From NCBI GenBank assembly GCA_977862235.1, contig OZ374560.1, forward strand, positions 2,666,001-2,730,000: a stretch of DNA of 64,000 nt, written 5' to 3'. The DNA comes from Dudresnaya verticillata. Taxonomy: Eukaryota. The notes below the pieces were generated by a model. That model was given only the letters and a program-made list of their open reading frames with translations. It was not told the origin of the DNA and did not search any database. Below are positions 4,991-53,980 of this stretch, piece after piece (position 1 is the first letter of the stretch; every line of letters starts with the position of its first letter). Made by a program: the position numbers and the translations under genes.

Positions 4991-6606
4991 TTGGGCCAAC
5001 GGCTCACTTGTAACCGCCGCCTCGGCTTGGAGATGATGGATGCCAACGCAGACGATAGCGTCTTATGTTCCATCTTTCGCCATGAGTGGATCGTGCTAGT
5101 GACGCAAGTATTCGTCTACGAAGCCCGTCGGGGCTTTTTATACTTCATCAGCGCCCAGCTTCGTGGGGCCATCCGTTCTATAGGCGCTGCTGCCTTCACC
5201 GCCAACTCGGCCGACGCCTCAGACTTGGACCAACTCTTGGTCTTTGTTGAGCGTATTCGCTGGAGCGGCGTTTCGAAACGAAATGGGCATCTGCGTGAGA
5301 ACACCGTCCACCTGACGCCGGTGTACGACCGCGGCGATTGGGTTGACTTCGACGCCGTCAAGTGGCACCCAGTCCTTCCGGACTATTTGATGGCTCCGTT
5401 ACCCACAGAGGGTAAACCCATCCAGCTGGATGAGGGCGAGCGTCGCACTGGTTACACCAAGGGTTGGGTGAGTGTGCGTTGGCGCGATGAAGGGCCTAAG
5501 CACCCTGCTGAGGTGCCCCCCTTCGACGACACTGTCGATGGGGAGCCGCAGGGTCCATACGCTCCAGTGCTGACACACCATCACCGGGCTGATGCCGAGA
5601 TCCGTGATCTATTTGGCCGCCGTGGGCTGGCTATCCGTCTTGCTGCCCATTGGGGCATCTACTCCCTCAACCTTAACAGTCTAGCTGACTGGGTGGAGGA
5701 CGCGCTAGCCGAGTATGAGGCTCATTGGATTGGAACTCCAGGTCCGGTTGACCGCCTTTTGACTCACCTGAATAAGTTGCCCCCGCTGGGCGGAATCAAG
5801 GCTGAAAGTGAGCCTGGAGTGGAAGTCAAGAAAGAGCCTGGCTCTAAGTTTCGCCGCGGCATCGGCTACGGTAAACCGGGTTCTTCAGTCCAAGGCTCTT
5901 TAGCGCTCCTTCCGATTATCGACGCGAGGGAAGCCACCACGGCTGATGTGTCAAAGGTCCCGCGTGAGGAGCGCCTTGCCACGGCTGGTGCCAGCGCGTC
6001 CAACATCGCTCCGCGAGTCACGGCGCCTCCTTCCCAGCCATCGGCTTCTCGAGTTGGAGTCCCACTTCGCTCCGTGGTTCCACGCCAGATTTCTACCGTT
6101 AGCGGCGCGCCCGCTGGGATTAACCCCCAGTCGGAGTCAGCCTCGGCTAACCGCCCCACTGCCGAGGTGGCTGTTGGGGCCCCCTCAGGGCCGCCCCCTT
6201 CGGCTGCATCTGGCACAGCACCTGCCTCACTCCAGACGCCTGCTAAGTCTTTGACTGGTGATTCCCCCAAGTGGAGGAGAGGGCATCTACGCCTCTGGCT
6301 CCCGGTCAAACCGATGAGGCTTTGCAGCCTACCGACGAAGTGCTCGTGAAAACTGAGTTGGTGCTCAAGGAAGAGGAGGAGTTGGCTCCTGTGGAGGGCG
6401 ATGTCGCGCCGATGGATGTGGACCCGACGACAGCCAACGAGGCTCAAGGAACGACAATGGAGGGTACTCGCCGGGGCCGTGGACCGTGTCGTGGCCAGGG
6501 TCGGCGGATCATCCGCGAGGTGCGGCGCATCGTGACGACGCGGGCGCCTTCTGCACCTAACCCGCCCCTTGGCGATGACGAGGTCATTGACCTCCTTTCG
6601 GATTAG
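4991..6606 (+). pseudogene. A antisense accessory gene (5'-truncated, one frameshift near 6280); unknown protein family
   Basis: ORFs 4991-6349 and 6271-6606 are clearly homologous to C 18557-20080 (LLVFVERIRW vs LLLFVERIVW; PAEVP; GPYAP; RRGLAIRL; SLADWVE; RRIIREVR; EVIDL). AATAAA at 6695-6700. Confidence 0.85.
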
Positions 6607-7666
6607 CCGAGTCGAGCCCTCGTCTTGAGGCATGCCTCGAGACATCGAGCCTGATAGGGACTAGAAGCCCACTCCAGCGGCTTAACCGCTTAGCAATAAA
6701 CTTCGTCTTGTATGCGTAACCCACTGCTTTAGTAGGCTTCGAGCCTTCCCATCCTGTGCCACTTTTCTTCCTAGTGAGACAGTGGTGCCTTTGCTTGTTC
6801 AAGCACTGTTGGACAACCTATTATTGGTTGACCAATACGCCTCTCTAGCGTCTGTCGCTGCCTGAGAGCGTGCCCGCAATGTCCACAGTAGCTCTACAGT
6901 TCAATGCGACGCACTGTAGCGTATTTTGGCGCGAAAGCCGTTATGGCTGTTAATTGGTCACATCACTCCGCCACCTTGCTGTAGCCTTTCTAGCAACTTA
7001 CGGACTGTGCCCATCGCCACAGGCAAGAAGTATTAGTCAGCGGCCTCGGCTTCTTCGTCTTCGCGCGTGGCTTCCAGAATTCTCAGCGTCAATACGCTTG
7101 GCGCTTTCTCCTCCCCTATCAATGGGGTCTTACGCGGTTCCAAAGGTCCTCCCCAGCAGATGGGGGAGTCGGAGTATCAAGACTCACCAGTCTAGGATGG
7201 GGCGTATTTGTGCCTTACACCCTCACTGGGTTTGACGCGAACGCCCTTTTTGTGGGAGGTAGTTGGATCAACCTCGGGCTAATGTCCCCTCCATATTGTA
7301 GCGTATCGCTTTTGGGCAGTCCAGCCGCCCTCAAGCGTCATAGTGCTGGTAGTTATAATTGCAATAAATTATCAGTTGCCCATCGCCGCTGTTCCTTGCC
7401 CGCACCTAGGGGAGAGTGGTCGCCATAGCTTTTGCCTTTTCAGGATTGAGTCCTTGGGGTAGCCATGTTCCGGCCACTCTGCCTAACAATAGCCTCTGTG
7501 CTCGAGGTTGGCCTCAACCTGAATCTGGCCTTGAACCAGGTTGATAACCTTATGCATAGCGTTAGTCGCTGTACACAGGTGCGCCTCTAACGTAGGATCA
7601 ACTCCTAGCTCTGAAGCGCCCGCTCGCTCTGGCAGAACTCATCTTGCAGAGTTCACCTCTTGATTA

Positions 7667-7797
7667 CATCTATCCATTTCCATTCTTCCATCCAGGATCC
7701 AATCCTTCTAACATCTATCCATGATATACATCTATCCAGAGTCTTGACTCTTCTTTCATCTATCCATTTCCACATCTATCCAGAGTCTTGACCCTTC
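7667..7797. repeat. Five CATCTATCCA copies in the A spacer between the pol end and the antisense-gene end
   Basis: Copies at 7667, 7712, 7729, 7757 and 7773; two extend to ACATCTATCCAGAGTCTTGAC. Confidence 0.85.
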
Positions 7798-8074
7798 TGT
7801 AGCCATCGACATTGGTTCATCTGCTTGAGAGGCTAACCCCTACTTCCGGGTTCGGTAATCGGCGAATGCAGTCCTTAGCTCATAGGCTGCGTTCGTATTT
7901 GCGCGGGGACGTCGGCTTCGGAATCTAGAACCAAGTTCTACCTCAACGCATATGAGGTGAGTCTAGCAGTCGGGAGATCCGACTCCAAACAGCCCAACTG
8001 CTGTTTTGGTTTGGTGCGCCCGCTTGAGACCACTCATAGGCCCGGTGCCTTACTCAACGCGCGGGCTCGCCTCG

Positions 8075-11000
8075 CTAATTATCAGGGAAAGGTATCCCTT
8101 TTTGGCGGTGACACCTTGCAACTAAATTTTGAGGGAGATGCCCTTTGGGTTCCCATGTGTCCTTTGAGGCCGGGCTCTGGAACCACCGCACACGATAGAG
8201 GTGTGTATCGGGGTCATAGGAAACGATCCTTTCGTACACGTGTTCGCGTCGTGGTGCCTTCTTGAAGCGCGAGAAATTGCGGCTTGACGTCCCTTCAGCC
8301 ACTGTCGACGGAGGTGATGACGAGTCCACACCCTCATCTCTAGGAGCATTCTCCTGTCGTTGGGGGACAACAGGCGCAGTATGGGCGCCGCTAGGTTGCG
8401 CATCCCCATCTGTGTCAGCCATTGTCTCGCCTTCAGCACCAGGTGCTTCGGGAGGTGCCGGTTCATTACCGCTTGATGCGGTGTTCATCGGGGCCCAGTG
8501 CCGTTTGTGTTGGGCCCGTAGGTTGGCCCAGTTGGGATACTCGAAGGTGCTGCACCTGTTTCCGGTGGCATTTCCACTACCGAGGGAGTCATGTCTAGTT
8601 CCAGCGGCGCTGCGTGTGGCGATGGAGCCAAAGTGACTCGGTCTAAAGAGATTGTTTCTCTGTCGCCCTTGATGTCGAGAAACACCACATGGGTTACTCT
8701 CTCGAGGACCTTATATGGCCCAAGGGCTTTCGGGAACAGTTTCCCTTCCCTCGCCACGCCTGAAGCGTCCTTCACTTTGGTTTCCCGTTCGAGGAATACC
8801 CACGAACCAGGACGTACCCTTTGGTTAGCCGATCGAATGCGGCTATTAAAGTTGGTTTCTTAGCGCTTTTGCGCTAGTTGCATCCTCGGCTGAGCCGTAT
8901 CCATGAGCTTTTCCAGCCGAGCGGTTAGGCGCTTCTTGACGTTCGTAGCGGGTATCCCGTCAAGGTCGACCGTTTCCGCTTGTTCCAGTAGTAGGGAAGT
9001 CGGTGGATTTGACAAAATCAAGTCAAAAGGGGCTAACGCTGTAGCGCGATGCACTGTCGTATTGTAAGCGTACGTGAGCGCTGAGGTGAACTCGTCCCAG
9101 TCCCTCTGGTCTTCCGCTATGAAGTGGCGAAGGCCCGCTAGGATGGTGCGGTTGAACCTCTCGGTTTGCCCATTAGTTTGGGGATGGTATGTCGACGTGA
9201 ACATATTCCGAATCCGTAGGATATCGCACTCGGCGAGAAAGAACTTAGAGGCAAATTGAGACCCATTGTCTGAAAGGACGTAACGGGGCGGTCCATATAT
9301 AAAGACCCAATGGTCAAAAACGCCTTCGCAACTGTATAGGCGGTTACCGTTTTCATCGGTATGGCTCGCGTCAGCTTTGAGAAGCGGTCCGTCATAACCA
9401 ACAGGAACTCGTTTCCTTTCCCAGAGCGGGGTAACGGGCCCAGGATATCGATTTCTACGAACTCTAACGGCATGGTTGCCGGGAAGAGTTTTATATGCGA
9501 AGCATGTTTTCGCAACTTCACCCGCTCTTGTGCGCATTTGACACAATTACGCACGGTGGCGTATACATCCAATGCCATCTCTGGCCAATATACCTGTCTT
9601 CGCAGGTTACGATACATCCGGGTTCCATCTGGGTGTCCCGCCATCTCGGGGTAGTGGGCTAGGTGTAACGCCCTTTCCTTAAGAGAACGAGGTATGAGAA
9701 CCTGTATCGCCTTGTCGATATACGACTTCCGGACTAGGAGTCCTCGTTCGTCCTCGAGATAGCAACCAGGCTTCCCGGCCTCGAGGTTCCTTCGGACCCA
9801 GATACAGAATTCATCTGTCTTCTGCTCACGGAGCAACTCTTCTGTGGTGATGAGGGATAGTCCCTTTTGTCCAGATTCCTTCTCGGCCACTTGGGTGATG
9901 AACACTTCGTCATCCGAATCGGACTCATCGACGGGTTCGATTTCCCATACTTCCAACGGTCGCGTGTTGGGCTCCGGTCGCGACCTTTCGCAAGGTTCGT
10001 CCCTCGGATCAGTCTCGAGGACTAGACACGGTATTTCCAAGTCCGGTTCCCATGGCGTGAAGGCATACGTGGGCAGCCGAGATACGGCATCAGCAATCTG
10101 ATTCTTTTTGCCTTTTCGGTACTGGACCGTGAAGTCGTATTCCAGGAGGCGTAATCTCCAACGGGCCAACCGTCCAGAAGCATCTGTCATGCTCATTCTC
10201 CATTTCAGCGCTTGATGGTCTGTATACAGGTCAAAGTGGGACCTTTCTAGATATGGTCTGAGCAATTGTGCCGCCCAGACCACTGCGAGGCACTCCTTTT
10301 CGCCTACAGAATAATTCTTCTCTGCCTTCGTCAGTCCTTGGATCCAGAAGCCTATCGGGTGTCGAGTCCCGTCTTCTTCGGCTTGCATCAGCGCGCAACC
10401 AATTTGGTAGTCGCACGCGTCGGTATCCACCGATAGGGCCTTACCCTCTTGTGGCAACCTAAGAATAGGAGGCGCTATTAGCGCTGTCTTCAGCAAGCCG
10501 AACGCCTCGCGCTGACGTTCATTGAACTGTGGCAGTTCAAAGCCCACTTCCTTCCGAAGGAGGGCGTTGAGCGGAGCTGCCACGCGAGCGAAGTTAGGCA
10601 CGAATCGCCTGTAGACGTTGCATAGACCGATGAAAGACCGCAACTGGGTCTGCGTGGTCGGCTCCTTGAAGCCTTCGATGGCTTGCGTATTCTTAGTCGC
10701 CACTTCTAATAAACCCGGACGGATGACGTGCCCTAAGTAGTCGACACTCTTTGTGAAGAAGTTACACTTCTTGGGTTTCAAGGAGACCCCTGCTTCTTGT
10801 AATACAGAGAGAATCTCTCTTACGTGCGTGACATGCTCGTCGACAGTCGCAGAGAATACGATAATATCGTCGAGGTATATGAGGCAAGATTTCCATCGAA
10901 ATCCTGATAAGAGGATGTCAACCGTTCGCTGAAAGGTCGCCGGAGCGTTGCATAGCCCAAAGGGCATCCTGCAGAATTGGAAGCAGCCCGCGTGGCATGT

Positions 11001-12424
11001 AAAAGCAGTCTTATGCTTATCCTCCGGTGAAACCGGAATCTGCCAGTAGCCTGAGTTGCAATCCAAGGTCGTGAAATATTGGGCTTCGCCCAAAGAGTCC
11101 AGACACTCGTCCATGCGTGGCAGAGGATATGTATCCTTCACTGTTATCGCGTTAAGCTTGCGATAGTCAACGCAAAAGCGAAGTGACCCGTCGGGCTTCC
11201 TAACCAAGACGACGGGGCTCGCAAACTCAGAGCGTGCAGGCTCTATAACGCCTTCTTTGAGCATTGTGTCAACCTCATCCTGTTCTGCTTGACAGGCTTT
11301 AGGGCCCGACCGATAAGGTTGCGTAAACACAGTTTTCGAACCTTCTTGAAGCTCAATACGGTGATCGGTCACCTTGATGGTGCCGTGTTGTCCGTCCCAC
11401 ATACTGGCGAACGGTTTAAGCATTTTGCGCACGCGGCGCCGATACGAAGTGGACAGGTGTTCCAGCGCGAGGTCATCGACCGTAATAGCGGTTGTCGCTG
11501 ATGTCGCGAATTTGATTCCAGGCTTAGCGTCTATATCCGTCTTCAGAGCAGCAGCAAGCCCCGCCCCGCCACATCGGAAAATGTTTCGGACGAGGGAAGC
11601 GTGTCACTGTCAGGAACATTATCCTCGATGGAGGCAGTGTAGACCGGCGTCTTCGTGGGCACCGGTACAGCCTTTCCAAGGCTTTGATTCTTGGAAAGCC
11701 GTTGAGGACGCGAAGAAACGTTCGCGTCCTTGACGTGAAAGAGCCGGTTCTCTTGAATGTTGACGATTCCATTCGTCAACAGGACTTGTCGGCGCTCGTA
11801 TAAGCGGGGTAGGGATTCCAGGAAATGTGTTCCTTTGGCGGAACAGGTAACGGGAACCCATGACTCACTGCCGGGCAGTAAAGTAGTAGTTTGTGCGACG
11901 CGAAGGAGTCGCGATGTAGGTAACGGGGGAACGTCCATTGGTTCGTCAGACCTGCCCTCACGGGGTATACCGCATCGGCGACGTAGAATTGGGTGTATGG
12001 ACCCGTCGCGAAGAACCATGTTCTGTTGGCGGACGCGTAACCCTTCCACGTGGGTATCGATAAACGTGCAACCCAAGATGGCATCTACTGCTAATGCCCT
12101 TACGACAACAAAAGGTTGCCGAACCGTGTAGGACCCGAGCCTGATTATCAGGGAGACTGTTCCCAGTGTAGTTAGTCGGTGACTTGACGCGGAGGTCAAG
12201 TTCACAATTGACCGCGTTGTAGAAATCCGTTTCTTGTCTTTCGGTGATAGAACATCCGCGCGGATGAGATTAGGGCCTGCCCCTGTATCCAGTACGGAGA
12301 GCACATGAGTAAGATCGTCAACAGAAGTCCCGATGGACGCAGCTACTTTATAATTGTAGCGCGACAAGGAGCAAACGGGATCCTTACAATACTCGTGATA
12401 CTTCCGTCCGGGGGGTAAGCCCAC
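8075..12424 (-). pseudogene. pol: A pol: PR-RT-RNaseH-integrase-chromodomain (several frameshifts)
   Basis: LDTGAGPN (ORF 11543-12424); RT YLDD, RNaseH DAC, integrase HHCC (9138-11432); DNGSQF/YHPQTNGQTERFN (8860-9546); LGPY (8485-8775); chromodomain YRVRW..DTWEP (8075-8488). Confidence 0.95.
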
Positions 12425-12595
12425 GGGACGCGCTAAGATCTTCTTGGGAAGAGAAGTGACAGATTCACTAACAACCGGTCGATTCGTTGATGAGAAGCTG
12501 TCGAAGCTATAGCTCGAGGAGCTGGATTCAACGCACCGATCGGGGTTCCGGTGTCACCTGGGATATGTGGTGTACCGAAACCGGTTCCCCCCTCG

Positions 12596-15256
12596 CTAGT
12601 TTTTCGCCTTCATTGCGGGCGACCGCGGTAGCGGTGGAGGGGGTGGAAAGGGACGAGTCCCTTGGCGTGGTGACCTGGGCGTTTGCCTCGGAGCGTCGAT
12701 GGGGTGGTTCAGTCTAGGTTGAAATTGAACCTGTCGATTTCCCCCTTGACTTGCACCCAAATTTTGACGGGGATCCATCCGTTGCCCTATGGGCGGCCCG
12801 GCGGGCCCTCACTCGTTAGCGAACTCCGTCAGTCGGCCAACGGTCGCCAGCCACGGTTTTTGCTTGTGTGATAGTTGATGATACTGTCTTCTTTTTAAAG
12901 TCTCAAAAGACTGCTCATCGGTTCGAGCCAAATGCGGACAGTTGGGCTTTTTATGGCCAATGCCATAGCATTCGAAGCAGATATCATTGGGTTGGTCTTC
13001 AACCGTCACCCACCCAGGGCGTTGAGTCCTGGTTGGCTGTGCCCAGGCTGGGAGCCTATGGTTGTAGTTCTGCAGTACCGCGTCAACTTCACCGTGATAC
13101 GGTTGGTCGTAGTAATACTGTGTCGACCACGAATCCGATTGGGTCGCCGTTGATGGTGGCGCTTCGTTAGCGATGGCAGCTACGACTGCGTCTTCACTTT
13201 CCGCATCAGAGCCGCTGCTCTTTGAAGTATCCGAATCGGAGGCGGATGCATCCTTTGCCTGGCGAATTAGGAGCGCCCGCCCTGACTTGTGGGTACGAAC
13301 CTTCTTTAAGGTCTTCCTTGGTAGCGTCCTATTCGCTTTTGGCGTTCGCCCGCCACCCACTAGCGCCCGATGGGAATCTCCCTGCGCAGTCGCGAGCTCG
13401 ACGTGATCCGCCAGTCTGGCCGTCTTTGGGTTCAATGACGACGTACTTAAAAGCGTCTTCACCGCTGGTAACAACCCCCGAATAAACCTGGTTATCAAGT
13501 CTTGTTCGGTGTACACCCCAGCGACTCGACGCGCTTTGTTCTGCAACCTTCTCGAAAAGGTTACTTCGTCTTCATCTGGCTCCTGCGCCATGGTGTCCAT
13601 CTCAGAGGCAATCCTCTCAATATAGACGTCCTTGGCATATGTCCGAAGAAGGTAATTCACGGCTTCGGGCCATTCGGTGAAACCACTATTGTCGTCACCC
13701 GCAGCGTCAAAATTCGCTTCAAACATATCCTTCGCATCCTTCTCGAGGAACTCGGGGATGACGAGGATAGCGGCACCTTCGCTGATATGGGCTTGATCGA
13801 GCTGCCTCTTAAGCGTGTCACTCCCGTCAAAACGGCGACTCCGCATAACGGACTTGACACGTTTGATTTTCTCCGTGGTCGCCTCGGTCACCTCGGGCCC
13901 GCGGTAATCATCCAGGTTCAATAACCTATACCTTCTATAGGAAAGCACCTGTATGAAGGCAGGATTCCTAGGAGTCAGCTCCTTAACACCGGAACGTCGG
14001 GGACCCCTCCAGGAAGACCATGACGGTCCAGAATGCGAACGGGAACCTGGTCCTTCTTCATCCGAGGGACCCGGATTAGGGTGAGACCCTGATCGAGGAT
14101 TCTCCTCGTGACGATGGCTTGAATATCTGTCACGATGAGAATCAACTTGGTCGCGGTGTGCAGAATACCCAATTGGTCTGGTGCACTTGCAACCCTGTTG
14201 GCAACGGCCTCCATCTCCTTCACCTTGGGACCCACTGTCCGACCCCGTATGGGGTAGCCTCCTACGCCTGTCGCGCGTACCGCGAGGCACTGGTGATCGC
14301 CGTCTCATGACTTCAGGGATATTATCCCTCTCGCGGATTACGCGCCGCATCTGCAATTCCAGAAAAGCGACACGACTCTTCTCCTCATCGAGTTCTTTCC
14401 TTAGGACCTCGATGGCTCTGTCCTGTTCAACGCACCGTGCGTTGTCCTCGTTGAATTGAACGTCCGCAATAGCCATTGCGGCTTCTGTCCTGGAAAGGTC
14501 GGCAGCCTTCGTGGCTTCATCTAATTCAAGATGAACCGATTCCAACTGGTCCCCCATTGAGTCCACTTGGGCTTGTAGGGTCTCGACCCTTTCCTCTTCT
14601 AAACCCCTTAAGGGGCGTTGTTGGCAAAGAGAATTGACCATTTCTTGGCACATAGCCAGTAGCTGGTCGTCTCGACGCGCGGTGGCGTCGTCGAAATAGC
14701 GTTTCACCCGTGTGAGGGTTTCATCCGCCTGGAATTCAAGCAGCGCCAATACGCTAGTTCCGAGAGCATTCTCGATGCCGGTCTCAACCAATTGACCGAT
14801 CTCACGCTCAGTGAAGCACCGTTGGTCGGTCGAGTTTGCCTTCGTTCTCATCGGCATTCGGATATCGGGTGGAAGCGATGAAGTCGTTTCTTCTTCTAAG
14901 GCCAGTCCGCCTGTGTCGTGCTGGCTGTAACCAGCTTGAAGCATCGGCGGTGGCAGCATACTAGGGTCCGGACCCTCATTCGCACCGATGTTGGCGGTGC
15001 TTGCGGCTGCAGTCCGGGCCGTATTTTCTCCTTCAGGGATCTGTCCCTTTCCATGGGCAGACGGGTCTTCGTCTCCTGGTGCGCCCGCCATTCGGGGCGG
15101 GCGTTCCACTTCTCCTACTGTAGGACCTCGAGCCAAAGCGGCTATTACAGCACGGGTTCTTGCTCCCGTGGTCCTCACGGAGGATAAGCTGCCGGTACAG
15201 CTACAACCCCGGCTTGTTAAACCTGGGCGGGTGGTTTCACCGTTAGATGTCGGCAT
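12596..15256 (-). pseudogene. gag: A gag (815-aa ORF plus frameshifted C-terminus ending AKN*)
   Basis: WPEAVNYLLRTYA; zinc knuckle CFECYGIGHKKPNC; closely homologous to C gag. Confidence 0.9.
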
Positions 15257-15707
15257 CTTCTGAACAAGATTGTTATCGACAACCTTAAAACGTAGGATTC
15301 GGTCCTGTGGTTGCGCTAATCGGGGAACTTCTCCCTAGGATGGCAAACTTCTCAGAACCGTAGTTCTCGGGGTTACGGGCGATTCTGTCCGCGTGGAACG
15401 CCCAACGCGCGCGCCCGCACAGCCCGTATACTGACGTATTTTTGATGACAGGGATTACGATAACCTGCACGAAGAGTTCCTTGTACACGATTAAAAACCG
15501 CAGAAGCGGTGGCAGTTGCTTGCCTCGAATTTGACGCAACTTCGAAGCTTGATATGAAGCTGAGAAACCGTCGACACTTGGCCGACTAGGATTTCACCCT
15601 CAGGAAGTAGTTCCTTGAATTCTTGCACGGGGAATTCTCGTCCCGTGGGAAGGTCCGAACGACGACTTGCGGATGAGGTAGTGAAAAGGGGCCGACCCTG
15701 AAAACGC

Positions 15708-15725
15708 TTCTAGGTCGGGAGACCA
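15708..15725 (-). promoter_or_regulatory. Primer-binding site of A (TGGTCTCCCGACCTAGAA, tRNA-Tyr-like)
   Basis: 1 nt from the 5' LTR end; identical in C, D and F. Confidence 0.9.
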
Positions 15726-15726
15726 C

Positions 15727-16371
15727 TGTAGTAGTATGGCCCGTCAAGGCAGAAACCCGCCAACCGGCAAGGACAGCTGTCCTGACGGTGCACAACACAC
15801 TAGCTTAGGTAGCTCGGGAAAAGGGGTTGGTAGAGTCTTTGAAAGGCACAGAGCCTAAGGGAAAAGGGGGAAAAGGGGCGGCGCCACCCAGCTCGCACAG
15901 AGCAACCGTCGTGTGGAGGCAAGGCTCGTAAAGCACCTGAAAGGGAGGTTACGGTGAGTCCGTGAATTCCAAAAAAAGGGTAAAGACCCGAAACCCACCG
16001 TGGGTTCTATTCAGGAGGCCCCTGCTACTCAGGGGCCTATTAAGTATACAGAGCCGAAAATGCTCCTACCTCCTATGAGCTATTCTAAGCGATTCTAACT
16101 GTCATTATTAATCTAATTGTACTGTTGTCAGTTATAAATACGGATGAGTTGTAGTACCGCGTCGGGACGCGTGAGCGGCCACAATAAATTACCCAATGGC
16201 AATTTGCCATCAGTTTTGGTGCCAGCAGGGACGCCAGCGAGGCGCATCGCCCTTACAGCGCACGGTGCTTGTGCGCGCCTTACAGCTTGATGCGCGTGGG
16301 CGTCTTACACCTTGATGCGCATAAATGACTTACAGTGCGCCAGCACTCCTGCTGCGGCTCATTCTTCTACA
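15727..16371 (-). repeat. A 5' LTR
   Basis: Repeat of 4254-4898, next to the PBS, followed by TSD GCAAC. Confidence 0.97.
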
Positions 16372-16557: not shown

Positions 16558-17157
16558 TGTAGCACAACGGGTCCAGCCCAGGAAGAGCAAAAAGAACAAA
16601 GGACACCTGTCCGGAACCGTCGTGCTCACATGTAGCTCGGGTGTGGTAGAGGCTTGGTAGAATGGCGCTAGGCCAGGAAAAAGGAAAAGGAAAAAGGGGG
16701 ACGCGACCCGGTATTCCGCAGGGAACCTGCCGTACGGTGACGAGCCTGTAGTTGGCGTCCAAAAAGGGAACGGGAAGCGCCCGGAATCCAGAAAATGATC
16801 AAGACCGAGAAACTCCCCGTGGGGTTCAATCAGGGGTGCCCTGCTATTCAGGGGACCAATAAATAGGGCTTGTGCCCGTGCTAATACTAACTACTACAGT
16901 GTACTGTACACGAATTACATTGAGCAGTGGGAGGCGGATCTACGCCCCTGTGGCGGCGTATAATCGGGAAATATCCCAACGCCGCACCAATGATCAGGCG
17001 CCAATTGCGCGTCTGAGGCGCAGATGATTTCGCGCCAGGCGCCAATCACGTGTCGCATCATGGCGCAGTCCAGCAATGCCAGCGCCTTACAGGGCATTGG
17101 CCCGTTAAAACTTACAGCGTCGAGCGCCCACTTGGCGCAAATCGCCGTTATGCCACA
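16558..17157 (-). repeat. C 3' LTR
   Basis: Repeat of 41768-42367; about 17 differences in 600 bp by eye. Confidence 0.96.
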
Positions 17158-17648
17158 CGGCCCCCCTCGTAAGACCGAGAGCCCCGCGAGGTCTGAACCG
17201 TCTCTGTGCCACAGTTTCCAATTTGCATTGGCGTTCTGCCAGATTTGTCGGGCCAAAGCCGTTGCAGCGTAACGTTGCGACTGGGACGCCGTCGACGAGA
17301 AGTCCCGCACTCCGAGCCAGCGCTCCAAATAGTGAGCGTATATCAGGGTCTTCACCCGCGGCGTCGCAAGGTGTTTTGCGCCGGTACCCACCCCAACTCG
17401 CGCTCTCATCGCGGCCTCGTCGTCCCCTTTCCTCGAGCACGGGCAGTCCCTTCCTTCCACACTTCCTCAGCGGGTGAGCCTTTTCGGCAATCTCCGAGTG
17501 TCAACGCCGCGCGCGCGTCCTCCTTGCCAACTTGCATCCCCCACGCCGTAGGGATCGCCACCGCGAGTCGACGGTCGCACGACGCTGTCATCCTCGCGCC
17601 TAACGCACATCATCCTCCCCGACCGACCGTCTGGACAAGGCAGCGCCT

Positions 17649-41320: not shown

Positions 41321-41748
41321 AATCCTTTCCAGCTTGAACACGGTGCTCGTACGTAAGCCTTGGTAGACTTCAGGGCTACCAGCGATTTCTCCAAGAGGAC
41401 TCTCCAACTTGTGCGCTGGCACGGCCTGTACAAAAGGACGGTGTTTTACCAGGATGCACCGACAACCTGTCGAAGCAGTCTTGAGGGGGGCGTCAGTCAC
41501 GCCCTCAACGGCCACTTCTAAATGGCCACTAGGGCCGGTTGTAATTCCAAGAATAAACGTGCTCGCCACTGATTTGACGCTACTCAGCAGCTTGAGATGG
41601 AGCGTAGAAACCGTCAACAATCCTGACTAGGGTTTCAACACCGGTTGGCCGGGAAACTCGTCCTTGACACGAAACAACGTCTTGCGTCCTGTACTCGTGA
41701 GTTAACCAACCAGGGTTGAGGAAGAAAGGGGAAACCAACCCAGAACAC

Positions 41749-41766
41749 TTCTAGGTCGGGAGACCA
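41749..41766 (-). promoter_or_regulatory. Primer-binding site of C
   Basis: TGGTCTCCCGACCTAGAA, 1 nt from the 5' LTR. Confidence 0.9.
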
Positions 41767-41767
41767 A

Positions 41768-42367
41768 TGTAGCACAACGGGTCCAGCCCAGGAAGAGCAA
41801 AAAGAACAAAGAACACCTGTCCGGAACCGTAGTGCTCACAGGCAGCTCGGGTGTGGTAGAGGCTTGGTAGAATGGCGCTAGGCCAGGAAAAAGGAAAAGG
41901 AAAAAGGGGGACACGACCCGGTATTCCGCAGGGAACCTGCTGTACGGTGACTAGCCTGCAGTCGGCGTCCAAAAAGGGAACGGGAAGCGCCCGGAATCCA
42001 GAAAATGGTCAAGACCGAGGAACTCCCCGTGGGGTTCAATCAGGGGTGCCCTGCTATTCAGGGGACCAATAAATAGGGCTTGTGCCCGTGCTAATACTAA
42101 CTACTATAGTGTACTCTACACAAATTACATTGAGCAGTGGGAGGCGGATCTACGCCCCTGTGGCGGCGTATAATCGGGAAATAGCCCAACGCCGCACCAA
42201 TGATCAGGCGCCAATTGCGCGTCTGAGGCGCAGATGATTTCGCGCCAGGCGCCAATCACATGTCGCATCATGGCGCAGTCCAGCAATGCCAGCGCCTTAC
42301 AGGGCATTGGCCCGTTACAACTTACAGCGTCGAGCGCCCACTTGGCGCAAATCGCCGTTATGCCACA
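41768..42367 (-). repeat. C 5' LTR
   Basis: Repeat of 16558-17157, followed by TSD AGAAC. Confidence 0.96.
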
Positions 42368-45994: not shown

Positions 45995-46362
45995 AAACCC
46001 GTCAGTCAAGATAGGACGCATGATTTGGCGCAATTATGCGACAATAATCGCGGGAAGCCGTTTGCACGCCAGCGCGGCGCGGACGAGGGCCGACGACGGG
46101 TTCGAGCGGCTCCCGCCTTGACAGAAGGCCTATATAAACCTGCTCCACTCCAGTCGAGGAGTGGGGGCAACCAGCACGGTGCCCACCAGACTTGCCAGCG
46201 CCCGAGCGCCTCTTCCCAGATCCCTACAGTGCCAACCGGGCTCCGGTCGCCACAGGGCACGCACGCGATCGCCGCGCCGCACAGTACCCATCAAAGCGCT
46301 TTGTTCTTCGAAGAGCACTACTGAGCGACGCGCGTGGTACTGCGGGCACCGCCCACCACAAC

Positions 46363-47406
46363 ATGGCAGGCGCTACTATTTCGTCGATTACGGCGCCGCA
46401 ACTCAAGTCAGTGATGGGAGAGGAGCTTCTCGCGTTCAAGATAAAGTACCGCGCCTACAAGGACAAGGTCGAGGAGTTCAACCGCTCTCGGACACCGGCG
46501 CAACGCATACCGCCGGCAGGCCTCAAGTCGTGCATGGATCCCGAGCTACTCACATCGATGATCCTGTGCCAGGCTTTCCCCGGCGTCACTTCTACCGCAA
46601 CGCTCACCGACGAGCACGTGAACACATGGCTGGAGGCGCGTTGCCGTGTCTCACACAAAGACATCGACAAACAGGTGTCCAACGCACTGGGCCGGGTCAA
46701 GTTCAAGCCGAAGAGCTCCGACCCCCAAGGTGCCGCACTGCAGTTCTTCACCTCAGTGACAACCGAGCTGCAGAGGAACCGAGTGGCACAGGTCATCACC
46801 GAGGCACCGAAAGCCCTCATCCAACAGCTGGTCCCGAAGTTGGAGCCGCGATTCCTGCGCGACAAGGTCAAGTCGAGCATGAAGTACTGGAAGGAAGAAG
46901 ACAAGAGAAGCTTCCACCACTTCCTTGAACAGGTCACCGCGACGTACGTCGACATCGCTTCGTACGCAGAAAAAGAAAGCCCTCCGAGCAACAACGGAGG
47001 CCGGGGCAAAGACAGCAACCCGAAGAAGGCTCGAAAAGACAAGAGCGAGCACGGCAACAACAATGACAAAAGCCGAGAAAAGAACCCTAGCACCTCCAAG
47101 GATGCAGACAGCAGCGACGCTTCGAAGAGGAAGAAGAAACGCAAAAACACCGAGTGGTCAGAGCCGTGCCTGAACAAGGCCTGCCACAAGCATCATCGAG
47201 TCATGGACTGCGACATGACCAGCCCAGACGAGAAGAAAAGGCTGCTGGATGCGTTCTACGATGAGAAGAAGAAGGCTAAGATAGCCGCCATCTCAAGGGG
47301 TGCACTTGGAGATGGACGCTGGAAGGCTTTGCTGCACGAGTCAGTCGAAGTGATTGCCCTAGGCGACTACGGTGCAGACAATTCTGCTCTCCCTAACGGA
47401 TCGTGA
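46363..47406 (+). CDS. gag: E gag plus start of protease
   Basis: ATG at 46363 within ORF 46192-47406; atypical knuckle CLNKACHKHHRVMDC; protease-like ALGDYGADNS at the end. Confidence 0.75.
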   Translation: MAGATISSITAPQLKSVMGEELLAFKIKYRAYKDKVEEFNRSRTPAQRIPPAGLKSCMDPELLTSMILCQAFPGVTSTATLTDEHVNTWLEARCRVSHKDIDKQVSNALGRVKFKPKSSDPQGAALQFFTSVTTELQRNRVAQVITEAPKALIQQLVPKLEPRFLRDKVKSSMKYWKEEDKRSFHHFLEQVTATYVDIASYAEKESPPSNNGGRGKDSNPKKARKDKSEHGNNNDKSREKNPSTSKDADSSDASKRKKKRKNTEWSEPCLNKACHKHHRVMDCDMTSPDEKKRLLDAFYDEKKKAKIAAISRGALGDGRWKALLHESVEVIALGDYGADNSALPNGS

Positions 47407-49602
47407 AGCTGCTCCAGCAGGCTGGCAAGGCTGTGGAGGTTGTGACGTTCGACACACCAATCAACTTATCTCCCGCAGTCGAGCTGAAGCAAGGTACAAT
47501 CACCGCGTCTGCGAAGGCTCTTTTCAACATCACTGTCTGCTTGCCATGTGGGCCGCTCCGACTGCGCAAAGTGGAGTTCCTGATCATCGACCAAGACATG
47601 GATGAGGTCCTGCTAGGACGTCCGCTTCTCAAGTGCCTAGGCTTCAACTTAGAGTCACACTTGCAGAAGGTACGAGACAAGTACGACGAAGCGGACATCA
47701 GCGATCTCATGAGCCGCACTGAAGACGACTTCGAGGCCTCCAGTAACTCAGCCAAGACCGCAGCGTTCGCCCCATACATCGGCCTGTGGTATGACCAGGC
47801 TGAGGAAGATCCGATCGAACTGCCGCCCTCTGCAGGGGCCAACATTGGAACAGACAAAGAAGAAGACATCCAGGAAGCATTTAGAAGTATGCTGACGTCT
47901 GCGAAGGACAACGGGATGTCAGCAGAAGGGCTAGCAACAGCTAAACGGATGCTCGACGAGTACAGGGAAATCTTCCGGATTAACCTGGGGGCAGACCCAC
48001 CGGCCAAGGTGGAGCCGCTCAGGATCAAGCTCAAGCCTAACCACCGACCTGTCAGAGCCAAGCAGCGAAGGTACACTCCCAAACAGCACGCCTTCATCTC
48101 TACAGCCGTTCGTGAGCTCAAATCCGTGGGGGCCATTCGTAGCAACTCCCAAGCAAGATGGGCAAGCCCTGCCCTCTCGGTTCCAAAGCCAGGGTCCGAC
48201 AAGTTCCGCTTCACAGTAGACCTACGGGCACCCAACCGGGAAACGATCCCAATCGTATCATCTATGCCTGACCTCGACCATATGATACAGAAAACTGCAG
48301 GCAGCAAGTGCTTCGCAAAGCTGGACATGTGCCATGCGTACTGGCAGATCCCACTTCACGAAGAGTCACAAGAATGCATGTCTATCCAGACACCGCTCGG
48401 GTTGCACACTCCCGTTCGCCTCTTACAAGGGCAGACGGACGCCGGAAACCATTTCCAGTGCGTGACATCTCACATCTTTGTCGAGTGCATCAAGAAGATC
48501 ATTCAGTGGTTGGATGACTTCCTGCTCCACGCCAAACACGAGAAGGAGCTACTGGAAGCCCTGCTGTTGTTCTTCAAGCAGTGTCGCAAGTACAACCTCA
48601 AGCTGCATGCCAAGAAGTGCGAACTCTTCGTGAAGGAAGCAAGCTTCTGTGGGCGTGTAATAGATGAGACAGGTGTTCGCTATAGCCCACGGGAACTAGA
48701 CACCATCCTGGGCATGCGAAAGCCAGAATTCGCTTCCTCCAACAGTTCTTGTGCGCTACGAACTGGATGCGCAAGAGTATCCCCGAGTACTCTAAGACAA
48801 TCGCACCGCTTCACGACCTGATGGAGATTTGCTACGGCAAGGCAAAGAAGCGAACCAAGAAAGCAGTAAAGAACATATCACTGTCTGGACTATGGGGGGC
48901 TACACACAACTCTGCCTTCAGTCAGATTCAATCTCACATAGTCCAGTCAATCAAGCTCGCACATCCTAAGTCAAGCCATAGGCTTTGCCTCTTCACTGAC
49001 GCCTCCGAGACCCATTGGGCGTCTGTACTAACGCAGATACACAGCAACAGATGGATTTGGACGTCGAGGAGCAGGATCACGAGCCCTTAGCCTTTTTATC
49101 TGGATCCTTTACAGGCGCTGCAGCCAACTGGAGTATAGTAGAGAAGGAAGCATTCTCGGTCGTAGAATCTATGACAAGACTCGACCACTTCACAGCGGCA
49201 GGTGAGATCTCATTGTTCACGGACCATGCCAACCTGGTGTACATCTTCGACCCGTACGGAAGGAACCCAGGTATGAGCCGGCACACAGCGAACAAGCTCA
49301 TGCGATGGGCGCTCAAGCTGAGCGCCCATCGATACGTCATCGAGCACCTCCCTGGCGAGCAAAACGTATGGGCGGACATACTAACGCGCTGGGCCGTCAA
49401 GCCCAGAGACAGAGTGAAGTCGGTCAAGCTAGCCAGCCTGTTCTACGCCCCAATTACTCCCGAGACTAACGAAGAGTATGACTGGCCAACTCGTAACGAC
49501 TTCGCTAAGGCTCAGAAGGAAACAACAGAACAACCGCCGCATGGTTTCAGCGAGAAAGATGGAATCATCCAAGACAATGGAGGTGTCTTCTGGCTTCCCG
49601 TA
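47403..49602 (+). pseudogene. pol: E pol, PR-RT-RNaseH part (frameshifted)
   Basis: VLLGRPLL, WASPAL, FRFTVDLR, KLDMCHAYWQIPL, WLDD, LFTDAS, WSIVEKEAF, NVWADILTR. Confidence 0.92.
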
Positions 49603-50366
49603 TGTAGTATGTCTAGAGCACCACCGCGTACGGCAGCCCAACGAGACCCCAAGAAGACCACAAAGACCTGTCGGATTTGACCAAAACTGGCCAGAACGTA
49701 GAACGGACCTGCGCGCCGGTAGCAAGCGTGGTAGAGCGGGAGCGCGCAGACGAAGTCGTGACCAGTATCCGTGATGAGGACGGAAAATGGCCAAGTCGGG
49801 GGTTCAGTTGCTAACTTTACTCCCAACCTCTGGCGGGACGGCTTCGTACCTTTTTCGGCTTAGCCGTAGTGTGTGGCCAGCTAAGTAGGCCCAAAATTGG
49901 CCATCAGAGCTAATCTAGAGCTATTCTACAGTTAGTGGCCGAGGTTACTCCGGTCGGCCATAATATCTACTTGTGTTCCGGCGTCGGGCCAATGTTGTAC
50001 CCTTACCAGACTAAACCAAGTATTTGTTCGTTAGTGGTTGGCCAAATGAGTTAGATTTTCCCTTGATTTTTCCACTGTCTTCCCTTTGATTCACCTTGCG
50101 GCCAAATCCAATTTCCATTTGTGTCCTGGCCGAGAACCGGATCATACGTGTACAGCGGGCCACGTGGTGCGCTTCAGTGTCGTAGGTGGCCACGTGTGAG
50201 CCACGTGTACAGTCGGTGGCCACGTATCATACTTGCGCGCGCTCACCGCCGTCCGCGCGCCGACGGCGCAACTTCATTGGCCAAGTGTCTTCGTTTGGTT
50301 GGGCCGATCGTACAGTTGGCCCGTCGATTTGCTTCCTTTCGGCGGCCCCCTTGCCGTTGCACCACA
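49603..50366 (-). repeat. F 3' LTR
   Basis: Repeat of 62152-62915. Confidence 0.97.
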
Positions 50367-50608
50367 GAGCCCCCTTCGCAAGCGCGGACTCCTGGCCGCG
50401 AGGGTTTCATCTGGCCATATCAGCGCGCGTGATCCGCGCCGCTACCCCTCTCCCTACATCCGGCCATCACCATCTTGCTCACGCTTCACTTCCCCTTACC
50501 AACACTTCCCAACACATCGTGCGCACGCCCGCGCTTCTTGCCAACTTGTGCGCCCTTCCCTCGCTTCGGCCTCCACGTGCGCATCCGGCCAGTCGCTCTT
50601 GATGGCGG

Positions 50609-53600
50609 GTGGCCAAAGCGCGCCCGCGTCGCACAGCATCGGCTAAGAAGAAGACTGTTCGGCCGACCATTTCTTCCAGCTCGTCATCTACACCGCCGTC
50701 GAGCGACGAGGAAGTGGCTGTGGCCAGAGCGAAAGCGACCACGAAGAAGACTGGCCAGACGTCAAGGCCGCGCGCGATGAAGGCGCCTTGGGCATCTTCC
50801 GCCCCAGCACCCAAGACCCCAAGTGGCAAGCCCTTCGATCCGCTAGTTGCTGTAGCCACTACCACAGCGGCGAAGCCCATCAAGACTGGCCAGAAGAAGA
50901 GTGTTGCTGCCTCCGCTACTCCGGTCATGGCGCAAGCGATGCCCGACGTTGGCACCGACAAGATAATGCAGGAGATAGCGGCCATGCAGAAGAGGCGCGA
51001 AGCTGAGGAGCAACAATTGGCCAGTCTGAAGAAGAAACTTGCGGATGCGCAGAAGGCCAAGGTGGTGCGCAGTGTGACCATCGTCGCATCATCTTCATCA
51101 GAGGAGGCAGCGGCGGCAACAGGCCAACTTAAAAGAGGTAAGCCGACAGCGTCTTCTAACGTCGGTCCGCTAGCCAAGGAGACGAAGCAAACTGGCCAAA
51201 AGACAGCAGAAGCGCCTGAGAAAGGGTTGGTACAGGCCGAAGTGAAGCGTCTCGAGGCGAAGAAGTCAATGCCGGCCCCAAACACTTCGGTGCCAACGGC
51301 CATTAATCCGACGCCACCGCCGCTGGCCAGCGCTGTTGAGAAGGCTGTTATTGCCATCTCTCGTCCCCTGGTGGCTCAAGCTACCACTGCAGCAGCTGAA
51401 GAAGTAGCTGCGGCTCAACCCGAGGTTGCCGATTCGGCCATGGTATTCGTGCCCGCTCGAGAAGAACCACTGACCAGCAAGCAGGAGTTACCTGAAAAAG
51501 TTGAGAAGGTTGGGCCAGAGCAGAAGAAAGGAGACAAGTTGGGGCAGAAGGCTGCAGAAGCTTTGGCCAATATTCCTGTGCCACGCAAGTCGTCGCGTTC
51601 GGCCACTCCGAGCGCTTCAAGGAAATCCACGCCGCGACTACGTTCGGTGCCTTCGCCTTTCATGCCGACGGCTGCGAGTCGTGCGCGCGAGCTGGTCAAG
51701 TTAAACATCGGCAAGCCCGCTGTTCAGGGTCCTCCCACAAAGAAGCAGCGGCTGCCGCCTAAGGAAGTTGACCAGACACCTCGCGACTAAGTTATCGACG
51801 TCGATGCTTCTACACCAATCCCACCGGCCAATCTTATGTCAGACGGCGATCGTCGTCGCTTTGTGGCCTTGCTCCCCGACGCCGATGAGCTTAAAACTGG
51901 CCATTCTTCGTCTACGCCTTCTGTAGGCGTGCAGCCCAAGTCATCTGGCCAGGTTGAAGATCCTCGCGCTATGGAAGTTACTCCGCGTGAAGAGACCTTA
52001 GATATTACCAAGACTGGCCAGAGTTCAAGTGCTGGCCCCTCTGCTCCTACTCATCCGGATCAGGAGCCGGCTTCGCATAATCGTGCTGCCGTGCCTTTCC
52101 GCTGCGACATTCCGCCGGGACTAGAAGATCATGATGGCCCCGAATTAGTTTTGGATGAGCGATTGCCTGGGACTTCCATCTGGCCAACGCGTCCTCGAGT
52201 GGATATTCCTTATGCCGAGTTGGTGGCCAATAGTGACAAGCTGGACATGATCCGCGTGCGAGAAAGCAATTGCCCTCTCAACGAGGCGTGGCATCAATAT
52301 CGCAAATCGCATGACAATGGCCATCTCTACTGGATCCCTTCGAAGATTGAGTGCGACCGTGCCTTCTTGCTGTGCGCGCAAGTCGTGATGTTCGTCCACG
52401 GGGCTTGGCTGATGTTCAAGGGCAAGTCTAATGTGTACCCTCATACGTCCACATGGTATTACGCCTTCCCTTACGCGTGGATGCTTGAGCGCTGGGAGCA
52501 GACGACCGTGCGAAACGCGAAAATGGCCAGTACAGACCTTCGTCGCATCATAGCGCCGGGAGATTGGCTGGCCCATCGCACGGGTGGTAGCTATGTCTAC
52601 CACGGCAGCACTCGTGGCCAAGAAGGTTTTTGGCCCCCTTTCGAATACTTCCCTAGCGTTCCCGCTTTTCTCTGGAGGGAGTGGCCATCGAAAGGAGAAG
52701 CTAGTCTACTTAGCCCGCTGGCTTATTATTTTGTTGGCCAGTATCGTCGTCGTGCGCTCGACCCCACCTGGGTTGAGTGCTTCCAAGAAACCGCTGTCAT
52801 AGAGTTGCACATAATGGCCAGCATCTTCTTCCGCTATGAAGCACAGGCGTCGAAGAGAATGTGGTGGATGTCTTCTCAGGCCATTGCTCGACGAGTGGAA
52901 GTGGTGAAAGATCTTACCTACCTCCCCGTCAGCCAGGAGCATCAGCATCAGTTCAATCATGTATATTGGCCAGATGTTGTGTCGCTGTATGAGAAGTTGG
53001 CCGACACCGTGCGGCACCGGGACCATTTGTTTCAACGCAGGGCTGGCCATGATGAGAAGTATTGCGGTTTCGACTGGAACAAACAAGTGACCTTTCGGCA
53101 TGGCAGTAGCTTTGGAGTTGAAGTGGCCAACGACGCTTCCATCGTGCGGGCCAGCATCTTGCATCCTCATCCGCATGTGGTGGCCGAACTTTCTGTGCGT
53201 GGCCATGTTAACCAAATGTCTTTCGCCAACGTCTTGCGGCAGCTGGACCAGAGCTTTGGCCGCCTCAGCGATACAAAGCGTGGCCAGACCGATGAACTCA
53301 ACCGCGTTCGTCGTCATGTTGATGAAATGGAAGAGGTAATCAGGCGGGGTGAAGAGCGGTTGGCCAATATTAGAAGGCAGAAGGACCAAGTCGAGGCCGA
53401 ATTGCAGGCCACAAAGGAGACGTTGGCCAGATCTAACGAGCAGGGTCTTGAGTGGAAGAGGCAGCGCGATCGCTGGTGCGATGAGACGCACAATCAACAG
53501 GCCTTACTTGACATGGAGCGCAATCGTGGATTTCATCAGCTGGCCAGTTTGCGCGCAGCTTATGCGCCCTCCGTCTTTGGCCAGATGCCTCAGTTTCCTC

Positions 53601-53980
53601 TGTCTTCCTTGCCTACGCCTGCGCCGGGTATGCCGCAATATCCTGGGGTCTCAGTGGCACCGGCCACAACCCCCACGCCATCTCACGCTGGGGACATCAG
53701 CAGTCATCCACGTGCGCCGTCTCGACCGGCCGATTATCAACCAGAGCCAACTCGTCCGACTTTGTCGGCTCCGCCGACTCCTGTGGCCAATGTTGCTCAG
53801 CCTGGCCAGGTCCCTGGAAGCTTATCTCTGCCGGCCACTTCGCCTTTTGTGACGCCGCCAACCGTCCCTGCGACGGCCCCTCGTGTCCCCGCGACAGCGC
53901 CTCGTGCGCCTTCGCAGTCAAGGAGCAGAGAGCCCTATGCTTCGGGTTCTCCTCGCTCACCAAGTCCTTATGGCCGTTAG
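50609..53980 (+). CDS. F antisense accessory protein (about 1120 aa with one in-frame TAA at 51788-51790)
   Basis: ORFs 50609-51790 and 51836-53980 share a frame and are separated only by one stop (RD*VIDVDAS). Basic Ala/Lys arm, Trp/Tyr-rich core, coiled coil, Pro-rich tail. Confidence 0.8.

Follow-up and report, generated by a model that had tools for sequence, protein, structure and literature searches.

Does the extra gene that retrotransposons of Dudresnaya verticillata carry opposite to gag-pol encode a protein that recognises its own element? The question is raised by a window of 64,000 nucleotides of contig OZ374560.1 (the whole stretch of DNA analysed here). According to the original prediction, the antisense protein binds as a dimer to a palindrome private to each element, similar to the VANC proteins of Arabidopsis. 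Our analysis points to a modified answer: the elements carry family-specific barcodes, probably kept by selection, and the antisense protein likely reads them to mark its element as self. This reading is drawn from sequence, and we give it a probability of roughly 45%.

A, C, D and F (Table 1) are young chromodomain Ty3/gypsy elements, each flanked by a 5-bp target duplication and with gag-pol on the minus strand. LTRs, PBS, PPT and the order gag-PR-RT-RH-IN were found, and Pfam Chromo was detected at the integrase end of C (E=1e-6), of D (E=9e-10, in a separate frame near 33070-33200) and of F (E=9e-4, below the cut-off); the chromodomain of A was recognised through its likeness to C. The chromovirus label refers to the chromodomain and the gene order, the RT tree of the window elements having included no named reference lineages. 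As originally claimed, the LTRs of A, C, D and F are unrelated: no blastn match joined LTRs of different elements at E<=1e-8. B is the sister of D, with 66% identity across gag and protease.

Table 1. Retrotransposons and antisense genes of the window
Feature	Position	Strand	Remarks
Element A	4254..16371	-	LTRs 4254-4898 and 15727-16371 (98.6%); target duplication GCAAC; Ty3/gypsy
Element B, gag-protease part	1..4253	-	3' end outside window
Element C	16558..42367	-	LTRs 16558-17157 and 41768-42367 (97.2%); target duplication AGAAC; split by D
Element D	28114..41320	-	LTRs 28114-29022 and 40416-41320 (98.9%); target duplication AATCC; nested in C
Element E, distant Ty3/gypsy	46138..49602, resumes 62916-63531	+	3' region outside window
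Element F	49603..62915	-	LTRs 49603-50366 and 62152-62915 (99.5%); target duplication CCGTA; nested in E
A antisense ORF	4976..6349	+	Starts beside polypurine tract; core 50% identical to C core
C antisense gene, three pieces	17736..20080	+	Open frames 17604-18470, 18512-19417, 19418-20080
D antisense ORF	29486..30703	+	405-aa aromatic-rich core, 38% identical to P0001
D antisense tail, second frame	30613..31779	+	ORF; Ala/Pro/Ser-rich
F antisense gene	50603..53980	+	Disordered N-terminal part, helical core (about 52150-53050), coiled coil, Pro-rich tail

The claim of a plus-strand gene between pol and the 3' LTR was borne out, since such an open reading frame was found in all four elements whose 3' end lies inside the window (A, C, D and F). 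Counted by frame, stops numbered 0 in the plus frame and 2-21 in each of the others. All four copies are nevertheless damaged, D by one frame change, F by one in-frame stop (ending at 51790) and C by breaks; the A copy is without the N-terminal part present in C, and its frameshifted tail, related to the C tail, runs on in another frame to about 6600. The dN/dS check that had been suggested gave pN 0.32 and pS 0.76 for A against C, that is, purifying selection, and the conservation of the antisense protein family under such selection is supported. The A, C and D proteins are one family. The F protein is weakly linked to it, scoring -0.4 bits on the D-group profile, and the link is indirect. 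The order of similarity (A and C nearest, then D, with F most distant) matches the RT tree. Outside the window, the D core shares 31% identity with P0002 across a third of its length, and P0003-P0005 are relatives of the F protein.

Pfam searches with eight antisense pieces returned no match except coiled-coil families below the cut-off on F, and with 12 members of the family alignments weak noise only; neither Transposase_28 nor the plant mobile domain nor any other Pfam family was matched beyond this coiled-coil noise. The PDB sequence search yielded an occludin coiled coil alone, at E>=0.5. Foldseek found no match at E<=0.001 in the PDB (D and F models) or in BFVD (F model), and the best VIA Z values of the fold search were 3.9 for D and 5.6 for F, the latter for a helical hairpin of generic kind where model confidence was low. 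No significant match to the VANC or plant-mobile-domain fold was obtained from the models, whose mean pLDDT was 56 and 60. The null fold searches are no proof of a new fold. No fold known for nucleic-acid binding could be recognised in the core, nor is it strongly basic (52 K+R against 46 D+E in D, 41 against 42 in F), and no methyltransferase or other enzyme domain was detectable. The Atlas search gave a top score of 0.87 for D and no usable match for P0003, profile searches with the two family alignments (A1, A2) brought no further relatives, and 0 of 6 window proteins were present in the protein collection in which they were looked up. No usable DNA from the surroundings of relatives was found, either in metagenome contigs (D and P0002 queries) or in viral contigs (F pol and P0005). 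One bacterial MAG (L001) matched weakly over a single stretch of 58 residues in the search of genome contigs, and was taken as chance.

The prediction had named CGCC-N3-GGCG as the palindrome of D, and 48 of the 52 such sites in the window lie in D. CGTC-N3-GACG is about equally common (40 of 43 window sites in D), and mixed half-sites are rare (2/80). CGCC-N3-GGCG is no fixed site. It is one among the ways of spelling a mini-hairpin whose arms covary, CG-xy-N3-y'x'-CG, present in 128 copies against about 10 expected; 52 further hairpins have a 4-nt loop and 31 a 5-nt loop (one LTR counted throughout). In A the signature is AG-xy-N5/6-y'x'-CT, with 81 copies against about 6 expected (one LTR counted) and a span of 13-14 that is held constant with 4- and 5-pair stems alike. 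At the anchored sites of D, both inner pairs were complementary in 128/265 (permutation mean 25.8, maximum 44), and at those of A in 43/77 and 38/73 (mean about 6, maximum 17). Control anchors gave 8/81 and 2/38 in F, 0/34 in D with the A anchor and 12/98 in A with the D anchor. Since the arms covary through many spellings in D and A, base pairing within one strand is called for. A set of several homodimers reading A was rejected in view of its 14 different stems.

The signature of C is looser (4-bp stems opening GG, GA or GC with span 12-13, or CG with span 13), and that of B consists of loose G-opening hairpins of span 12-13. B and C, though not sisters, have this similar loose type in common, and it overlaps the inner stems of A; the motif is thus clearly private to its element in A, D and F (the proposal had named D and F), but not in B and C. 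Throughout A-D the hairpin has 4-5 Watson-Crick pairs without strand preference and is set by its outer pairs and its height; the loop is free, and the base next to the stem on the outside is left unpaired. Extension of the stem outwards is avoided (D 12/128 against 34.3 expected, A 10/81 against 20.7, C 19/100 against 28.7), the bias in B being not significant.

These hairpins could be a mutational by-product, if the family RT copied short fold-backs and so perfected small inverted repeats with no reader involved. Such templated copying would yield arms with strict Watson-Crick pairing, loops of any sequence and no difference between the strands; one-mismatch neighbours of the signatures are at background level, and the RT is family-specific. 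It would also be expected to give longer stems, yet outward pairing is depleted. It leaves the fixed outer dinucleotide and the fixed height unexplained, it cannot produce the linear motif of F, and it does not account for spacing more even than random in A (CV 0.66 against 0.86, p=0.002) and F (CV 0.70 against 0.91, 0/5000). We regard this origin as very improbable.

Inside gag-pol the signatures exceed synonymous-codon shuffles (A pol 13 against 1.2, A gag 17 against 1.6; D pol 47 against 9.2, D gag 43 against 7.9; F pol 46 YGGCCR sites against 14.6), which upholds the claim of family-specific motifs and rejects amino-acid or codon bias as their source; the C antisense ORF showed no hairpin excess (3 against 2.5). 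Tandem amplification was rejected as well, because no flanks are common to any pair of the 128 (D), 43 (A) and 165 (F) sites compared, and only six short tandem rows occur in the whole window. RIP or CpG decay was rejected as a cause, CpG not being depleted (o/e 0.9-1.3). The end-to-end coverage that had been described holds for F, with 11-18 YGGCCR sites/kb in every region. In D it holds when CG-anchored hairpins of all spellings are taken together (every full kilobase then has 9-23) but not for the CGCC and CGTC spellings alone, which range over 2.5-19.5/kb and are densest in the antisense tail and 5' leader (19.5/kb). The D sites are not evenly spaced. Signature and antisense gene occur together in 4/4 complete elements of the window, the set over which their pairing was compared. 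Element E, whose 3' region lies beyond the window as does that of B, is an internal negative control for the statistics and has neither hairpin nor k-mer barcode. Three outside Ty3/gypsy loci (L002-L004) without a match to the antisense family are also without an anchored barcode, although they are distant and of different base composition.

F differs from the other elements. Inside it lie 178 of the 244 YGGCCR and 93 of the 104 TGGCCA sites of the window, the half-sites are independent (84/31/34/16), and no hairpin excess was seen. Of all element motifs, that of F alone behaves like a classic dimer site, and the most divergent antisense protein thus goes with a different kind of signature. 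The proposed reading, a dimer on an invariant palindrome in double-stranded DNA, accordingly fits F only. Extended to all families, as homodimers that each remove DNA methylation in the strict VANC manner, it is the least probable of the readings considered. A coiled-coil-like region is present in the F protein, P0002, P0003 and P0005, and VANC21 is predicted to dimerise through a coiled coil (PMC13547354). Against this, the arms covary in A and D, the sites lie in coding DNA and not in tandem, and the undepleted CpG leaves a VANC-style demethylation role unsupported.

In the main rival reading, Gag recognises the hairpins as packaging or export signals scattered along the genomic RNA, so that each family packages its own RNA, and the antisense gene has another role. 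Dispersed stem-loops with a common recognition feature are described as guiding the assembly of ssRNA viruses (PMC6281560), coverage is even in A and F, and folding predictions have the hairpins forming within their RNA context (mean pairing 0.34-0.54 at 20 C). Gag is also as family-specific as the antisense protein, with 26-34% identity between elements outside sister pairs. However, the genomic strand shows no enrichment of G.U pairs (in D 9 against 7.2 expected, with 8 against 11.3 on the other strand; in A 9 against 4.4, with 9 against 5.9 on the other), and several wobble stems equal in RNA stability to the common CGTC stem were seen 0-1 times. There was no loop consensus, GNRA excess or strand difference in folding context, and special GNA/GNRA loops were rejected. 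The F motif is no hairpin, and pairing between adjacent F sites was rejected too, neighbouring sites not being preferentially complementary (62 against 56.5, p=0.17). We consider packaging by Gag unlikely, although it is the strongest competitor.

Transposable elements often accumulate sites for host factors. Each family could have recruited a different host protein, a structure-specific chromatin or repair factor in A-D and a transcription factor in F, with the antisense gene again unrelated. The convergence of B and C on a similar loose type and the resemblance of YGGCCR to an ordinary dimer site are consistent with this. Uniform coverage of coding regions would be unusual for transcription-factor sites, and sister elements of one host are sharply different (A against C, B against D), a pattern more readily explained by a reader that is inherited along with its site. 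Recruitment of host proteins is in our judgement improbable.

We thus favour a reading by the antisense protein. Each of A, C, D and F has about 100-200 signature copies, spread over its LTRs, its spacers and its coding sequence. Selection likely maintains them, and the protein encoded antisense in the element would likely read them, so that copies are marked as self. Along the element a hairpin occurs about every 60-110 bases; the protein may grip the foot of the stem at the junction with single strands, and many molecules would coat the element. DNA is the more probable substrate, at about 60:40 over RNA, whether as cDNA or as DNA that is opened or extruded locally, since the stems make hardly any use of G.U/G.T pairs and show no preference for either strand. 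In the weakest step, the coat would shield the family from host silencing or confer cis-preference, and the signature would shift between sister families, each protein serving its own. What weighs against the antisense protein as reader is in part that Gag and RT travel with the element equally, and that a single fold would need to read hairpins and a linear palindrome alike. More broadly, and more tentatively, the chromodomain clade may possess a self-recognition code in which antisense proteins read the foot and height of DNA mini-hairpins, spelled differently per family, with one branch switched to a palindrome; reader and barcode would co-evolve, each family protecting or mobilising only itself.

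If true, this would be an undescribed route by which transposons recognise their own copies. The signature is an unusual shape code, made of outer base pairs and stem height, that runs through coding sequence over 12 kb and changes between sister families. Ordinary k-mer scans catch only fragments of it, so it may be overlooked elsewhere. No description of element-wide family hairpin barcodes was found in the titles and abstract openings searched in freely available literature. A confirmed reader would give selfish elements a way to distinguish self from sibling, and would provide a natural set of hairpin-specific binding proteins. Antisense extra genes of LTR retrotransposons are described as long without known function (PMC7264820); with such a gene beside a measurable family signature, the question can be reduced to a reciprocal binding test with short oligos.

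What is new is the barcode, the antisense-gene layout by itself belonging to a known kind. Antisense genes at the same position are known, including that of Boty of Botrytis (PMC7264820). Similar to Grande gene23, RIRE2, Retand TRP28, PvRetro13 and Boty, Ty3/gypsy elements with an aORF-3R (PMC7264820; PMC11963269), A, C, D and F have a conserved antisense ORF between pol and the 3' LTR. TRP28 is a predicted DNA binder and GENE23 is nuclear (PMC7264820; PMC11963269); unlike aORF-3R proteins, those of A, C, D and F match neither Transposase_28 nor the plant mobile domain. Retrotransposons with their own DNA methyltransferases (bioRxiv 10.64898/2026.05.21.726589) are, as described, likewise LTR elements with an additional gene that is presumed to label copies of the element itself, whereas the antisense protein here is without any such detectable domain. 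In ssRNA viruses and HBV, many small degenerate stem-loops occur genome-wide, coding regions included, with a self-protein proposed as reader (PMC6281560), and A-D, though not F, resemble them. For MS2, the packaging signals work in the RNA strand, and recognition depends on bases of the loop and bulge (PMC6281560), while in A-D the loops are free, outer pairs and height are constant, wobble is hardly used and strand bias is absent. In the VANDAL/VANC system of Arabidopsis (Hosaka et al. 2017), binding and demethylation were demonstrated, and the targets, which are linear 8-9-mers (YAGTATTAY, AGTTGTCC), lie in tandemly repeated non-coding regions of DNA transposons (PMC5735166). No sequence or fold link of the antisense family to VANC was found, and a fixed linear double-stranded motif occurs in F only. 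The proposed likeness holds in that an accessory protein with a conserved domain and variable regions stands beside short own-family motifs (clear in A, D and F) that differ between related families, as described for VANC. It does not extend to the sites themselves, which in these retrotransposons are dispersed through coding DNA, arise singly and, in A-D, form covarying hairpins.

The related elements of this nest of LTR retrotransposons, A to D and F, each carry a dispersed short signature, a mini-hairpin in A to D and the palindrome YGGCCR in F, and on the counts below these barcodes are real beyond doubt. When every 4-bp inverted repeat was counted per loop length, element by element, a strong excess was found, with z reaching 13.8 in A (loops 5-6), 15.1 in D (loop 3), 10.0 in C and 7.8 in B; F and the distant element E showed none. 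Each hairpin signature is defined by an outer dinucleotide and a span. In A, AG...CT with a span of 13-14 was counted 81 times where 5.6 were expected, and in each of the other five elements 0-8 times. D has 128 copies of CG...CG with span 11, for an expectation of 9.7, plus 52 with span 12 and 31 with span 13; the other elements have 1-12 of the span-11 form. C is marked at span 12-13 by GG, GA and GC (observed/expected 44/11.7, 31/8.1 and 28/9.8) and by CG at span 13 (26/6.1), and B has a G-opening set like that of C (15/2.5, 15/2.5 and 13/2.9). Since the G-opening types are also found in A (26, 19 and 26 against about 8 expected), where they are probably in part inner portions of A's own stems, the signatures of B and C are not private. 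A permutation test on the inner letters confirmed the pairing: 43 of 77 and 38 of 73 are paired in A, against about 6 after permutation, and 128 of 265 in D, against 25.8; cross-controls were at background.

The motif counts of the original prediction were reproduced, with CGCC-N3-GGCG in D (48 of 52) and TGGCCA (93 of 104) and YGGCCR (178 of 244) in F, and an unbiased gapped k-mer scan added CGTC-N3-GACG as a second motif of D. With one LTR counted, D holds 42 CGCC/GGCG, 36 CGTC/GACG and 2 mixed sites, whereas a protein with degenerate half-sites would leave about half of the sites mixed. The spellings of F match that pattern (TGGCCA 84, TGGCCG 31, CGGCCA 34, CGGCCG 16), unlike those of D. 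A strict VANC reading, with a dimeric antisense protein bound to its own element's palindrome, is the least probable of the readings weighed here. The stem spellings of D (28114-40415; CGCC 42, CGTC 36, CGGC 7, CGGG 1, CGGA 1) are not ordered by stability, so that pairs three and four are in part recognised by their sequence.

The barcodes are very probably under selection. The pair just outside the stem was complementary in only 12 of 128 hairpins of D (34.3 expected, 0 of 20000 permutations), 10 of 81 of A (20.7, p=0.002) and 19 of 100 of C (28.7, p=0.011), the 8 of 43 in B (11.3) not being significant. In A the span stays constant while a fifth pair replaces loop (42 of 81 against 20.9), and sites are spaced more evenly than random in F and A, but not in D. 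Avoided outward pairing, constant span in A and even spacing argue for a reader of shape, not for a fixed site or mutation bias; that fold-back by RT generates the hairpins is improbable to us. The sites lack common flanks. Synonymous-codon shuffles contained fewer of them than the real sequence for gag and pol of A, D and F and for C pol, and marginally fewer for C integrase, with no such excess in the C antisense ORF.

The layout of the nest is given in the table. It consists of young Ty3/gypsy elements; in A, C, D and F the two LTRs are 97-99.5% identical, the target duplication is 5 bp long, and gag-pol, on the minus strand, matches RT, RNase H and integrase and ends in a chromodomain. RT groups the elements as ((A,C),D),F (support A-C 99/99, A+C+D+F 96/95, D fork 87/90) with E far outside on a long branch, and gag and protease place B as sister of D (66% identity). 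The elements may resemble those of red algae. A nearly identical primer-binding site is common to A, B, C, D and F. Plant chromoviruses usually have an initiator-Met site, and the one here is presumably not of that type.

Features of the nest, with positions within the window
Feature	Position	Strand	Description
A, primer-binding site	near 15700		beside 5' LTR; A inserted in leader of B
B, primer-binding site	near 16400		beside 5' LTR
C, primer-binding site	near 41745		beside 5' LTR; C inserted in LTR of B
D, primer-binding site	near 40395		beside 5' LTR; D inserted in C
F, primer-binding site	near 62130		beside 5' LTR; F inserted in pol of E
Repeats in A	7704-7798		44-bp unit x2 with shorter CATCTATCC repeats, spacer between pol and antisense gene
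Region between B and E	42368-45900		3.5 kb; excess of 4-bp inverted repeats where the loop length is even (z 3-5, up to 4.8), without a stem that repeats; longer palindromes of the LTR remnant and of AT-rich DNA are the probable source
P450 fragment	44831-45253	+	cytochrome P450 C-terminus (Pfam p450 E=2e-12), frames upstream broken; probably host pseudogene between B and E
Second A-family LTR	63532-64000		in E's integrase, 99.4% to A's 5' LTR; indicates recent activity of A here

The antisense gene is an ORF on the plus strand that lies between pol and the 3' LTR. It is present in 4 of 4 elements whose 3' region falls inside the window (A, C, D, F) and broken in all four copies; the plus frame is the only one stop-free in all four cores. 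The A and C proteins share 50% identity over 240 aa, with no DNA match there by blastn; substitutions per codon position are 0.36/0.29/0.64, with pN 0.32 and a saturated pS of 0.76. A protein search with the D ORF retrieved two outside relatives, P0001 (38%, E 4.5e-76) and P0002, the latter a cluster whose 28 members are nearly identical and lie on short JGI contigs, which is what a multicopy element in another host should give. On a profile of these three, A scored 20.0 bits and the C pieces 21.3 and 8.3, each above all 300 of its own shuffles; A, C and D thus form one family. The F protein found P0003-P0005 (E 8e-11 to 7e-4 among 1.84 billion representatives) and probably belongs to the same family: P0003 scored 10.8 on the D profile, and a profile of the F group gave P0001 15.8 bits (in each case none of 300 shuffles scored as high). 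F itself scored -0.4 on the D profile (42 of 300 shuffles), and hhalign gave only 10-15% probability between the groups, with cores trimmed by eye from a joint alignment, a bias towards a match. The proteins have an aromatic-rich, mainly helical core of about 300 aa (models of mean pLDDT 56 and 60) and long low-complexity arms, with a coiled coil in F and some relatives; no match to a known family or fold was found, and the family is unannotated.

Nested elements of one host differ in signature, as do sisters (A and C, B and D), so that the cause most likely travels with the element, which makes host factors an unlikely reader. Four parts of the element come into question: Gag, integrase, RT and the antisense protein. 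We give the last a probability of roughly 0.45 as candidate reader: it is the sole conserved part without an assigned job, and the most divergent antisense protein, that of F, coincides with the lone change in kind of signature. The anchored barcode was absent from E, whose 3' region lies beyond the window, and from three outside Ty3/gypsy loci without an antisense-family match (L002-L004), a circumstantial pointer to the same protein. A more distant RT-bearing viral contig (L005, 9205 bp) has its own repeats: GACGTC and TGACGT/ACGTCA are strongly enriched, with 22 copies on the two strands together where about 4 would be expected.

Gag, reading the hairpins as RNA signals, would fit nearly as well as the antisense protein, and we consider it possible, though unlikely. 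Wobble pairs stay at the background level in D and are only slightly raised in A, equally on both strands; several wobble stems equal to CGTC/GACG in RNA stability occur 0-1 times each. No loop consensus was found in the hairpins, their flank biases are mostly mirror-symmetric, and predicted folding in context favours neither strand. Together, these features lean towards DNA as the putative substrate.

The observation behind the original prediction was confirmed and extended, and its interpretation is supported in part. Antisense ORFs of unknown function at the same position, and hence the layout of A, C, D and F, are already known from Grande, RIRE2, Retand, PvRetro13 and Boty (PMC7264820, PMC11963269). 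PMC13547354 ties VANC to MAIN and predicts coiled-coil oligomers, and further TE accessory genes appear in two bioRxiv preprints (10.64898/2026.05.21.726589, 10.1101/2025.02.11.637652). Element-wide family-specific hairpin barcodes were absent from the titles and abstract openings found in openly accessible papers, and within this literature no kind of signal already described matches the hairpin barcode. Its closest analogue in shape is the dispersed packaging signals (PMC6281560), of which those of MS2 are recognised through RNA loop and bulge bases, unlike the barcodes here.
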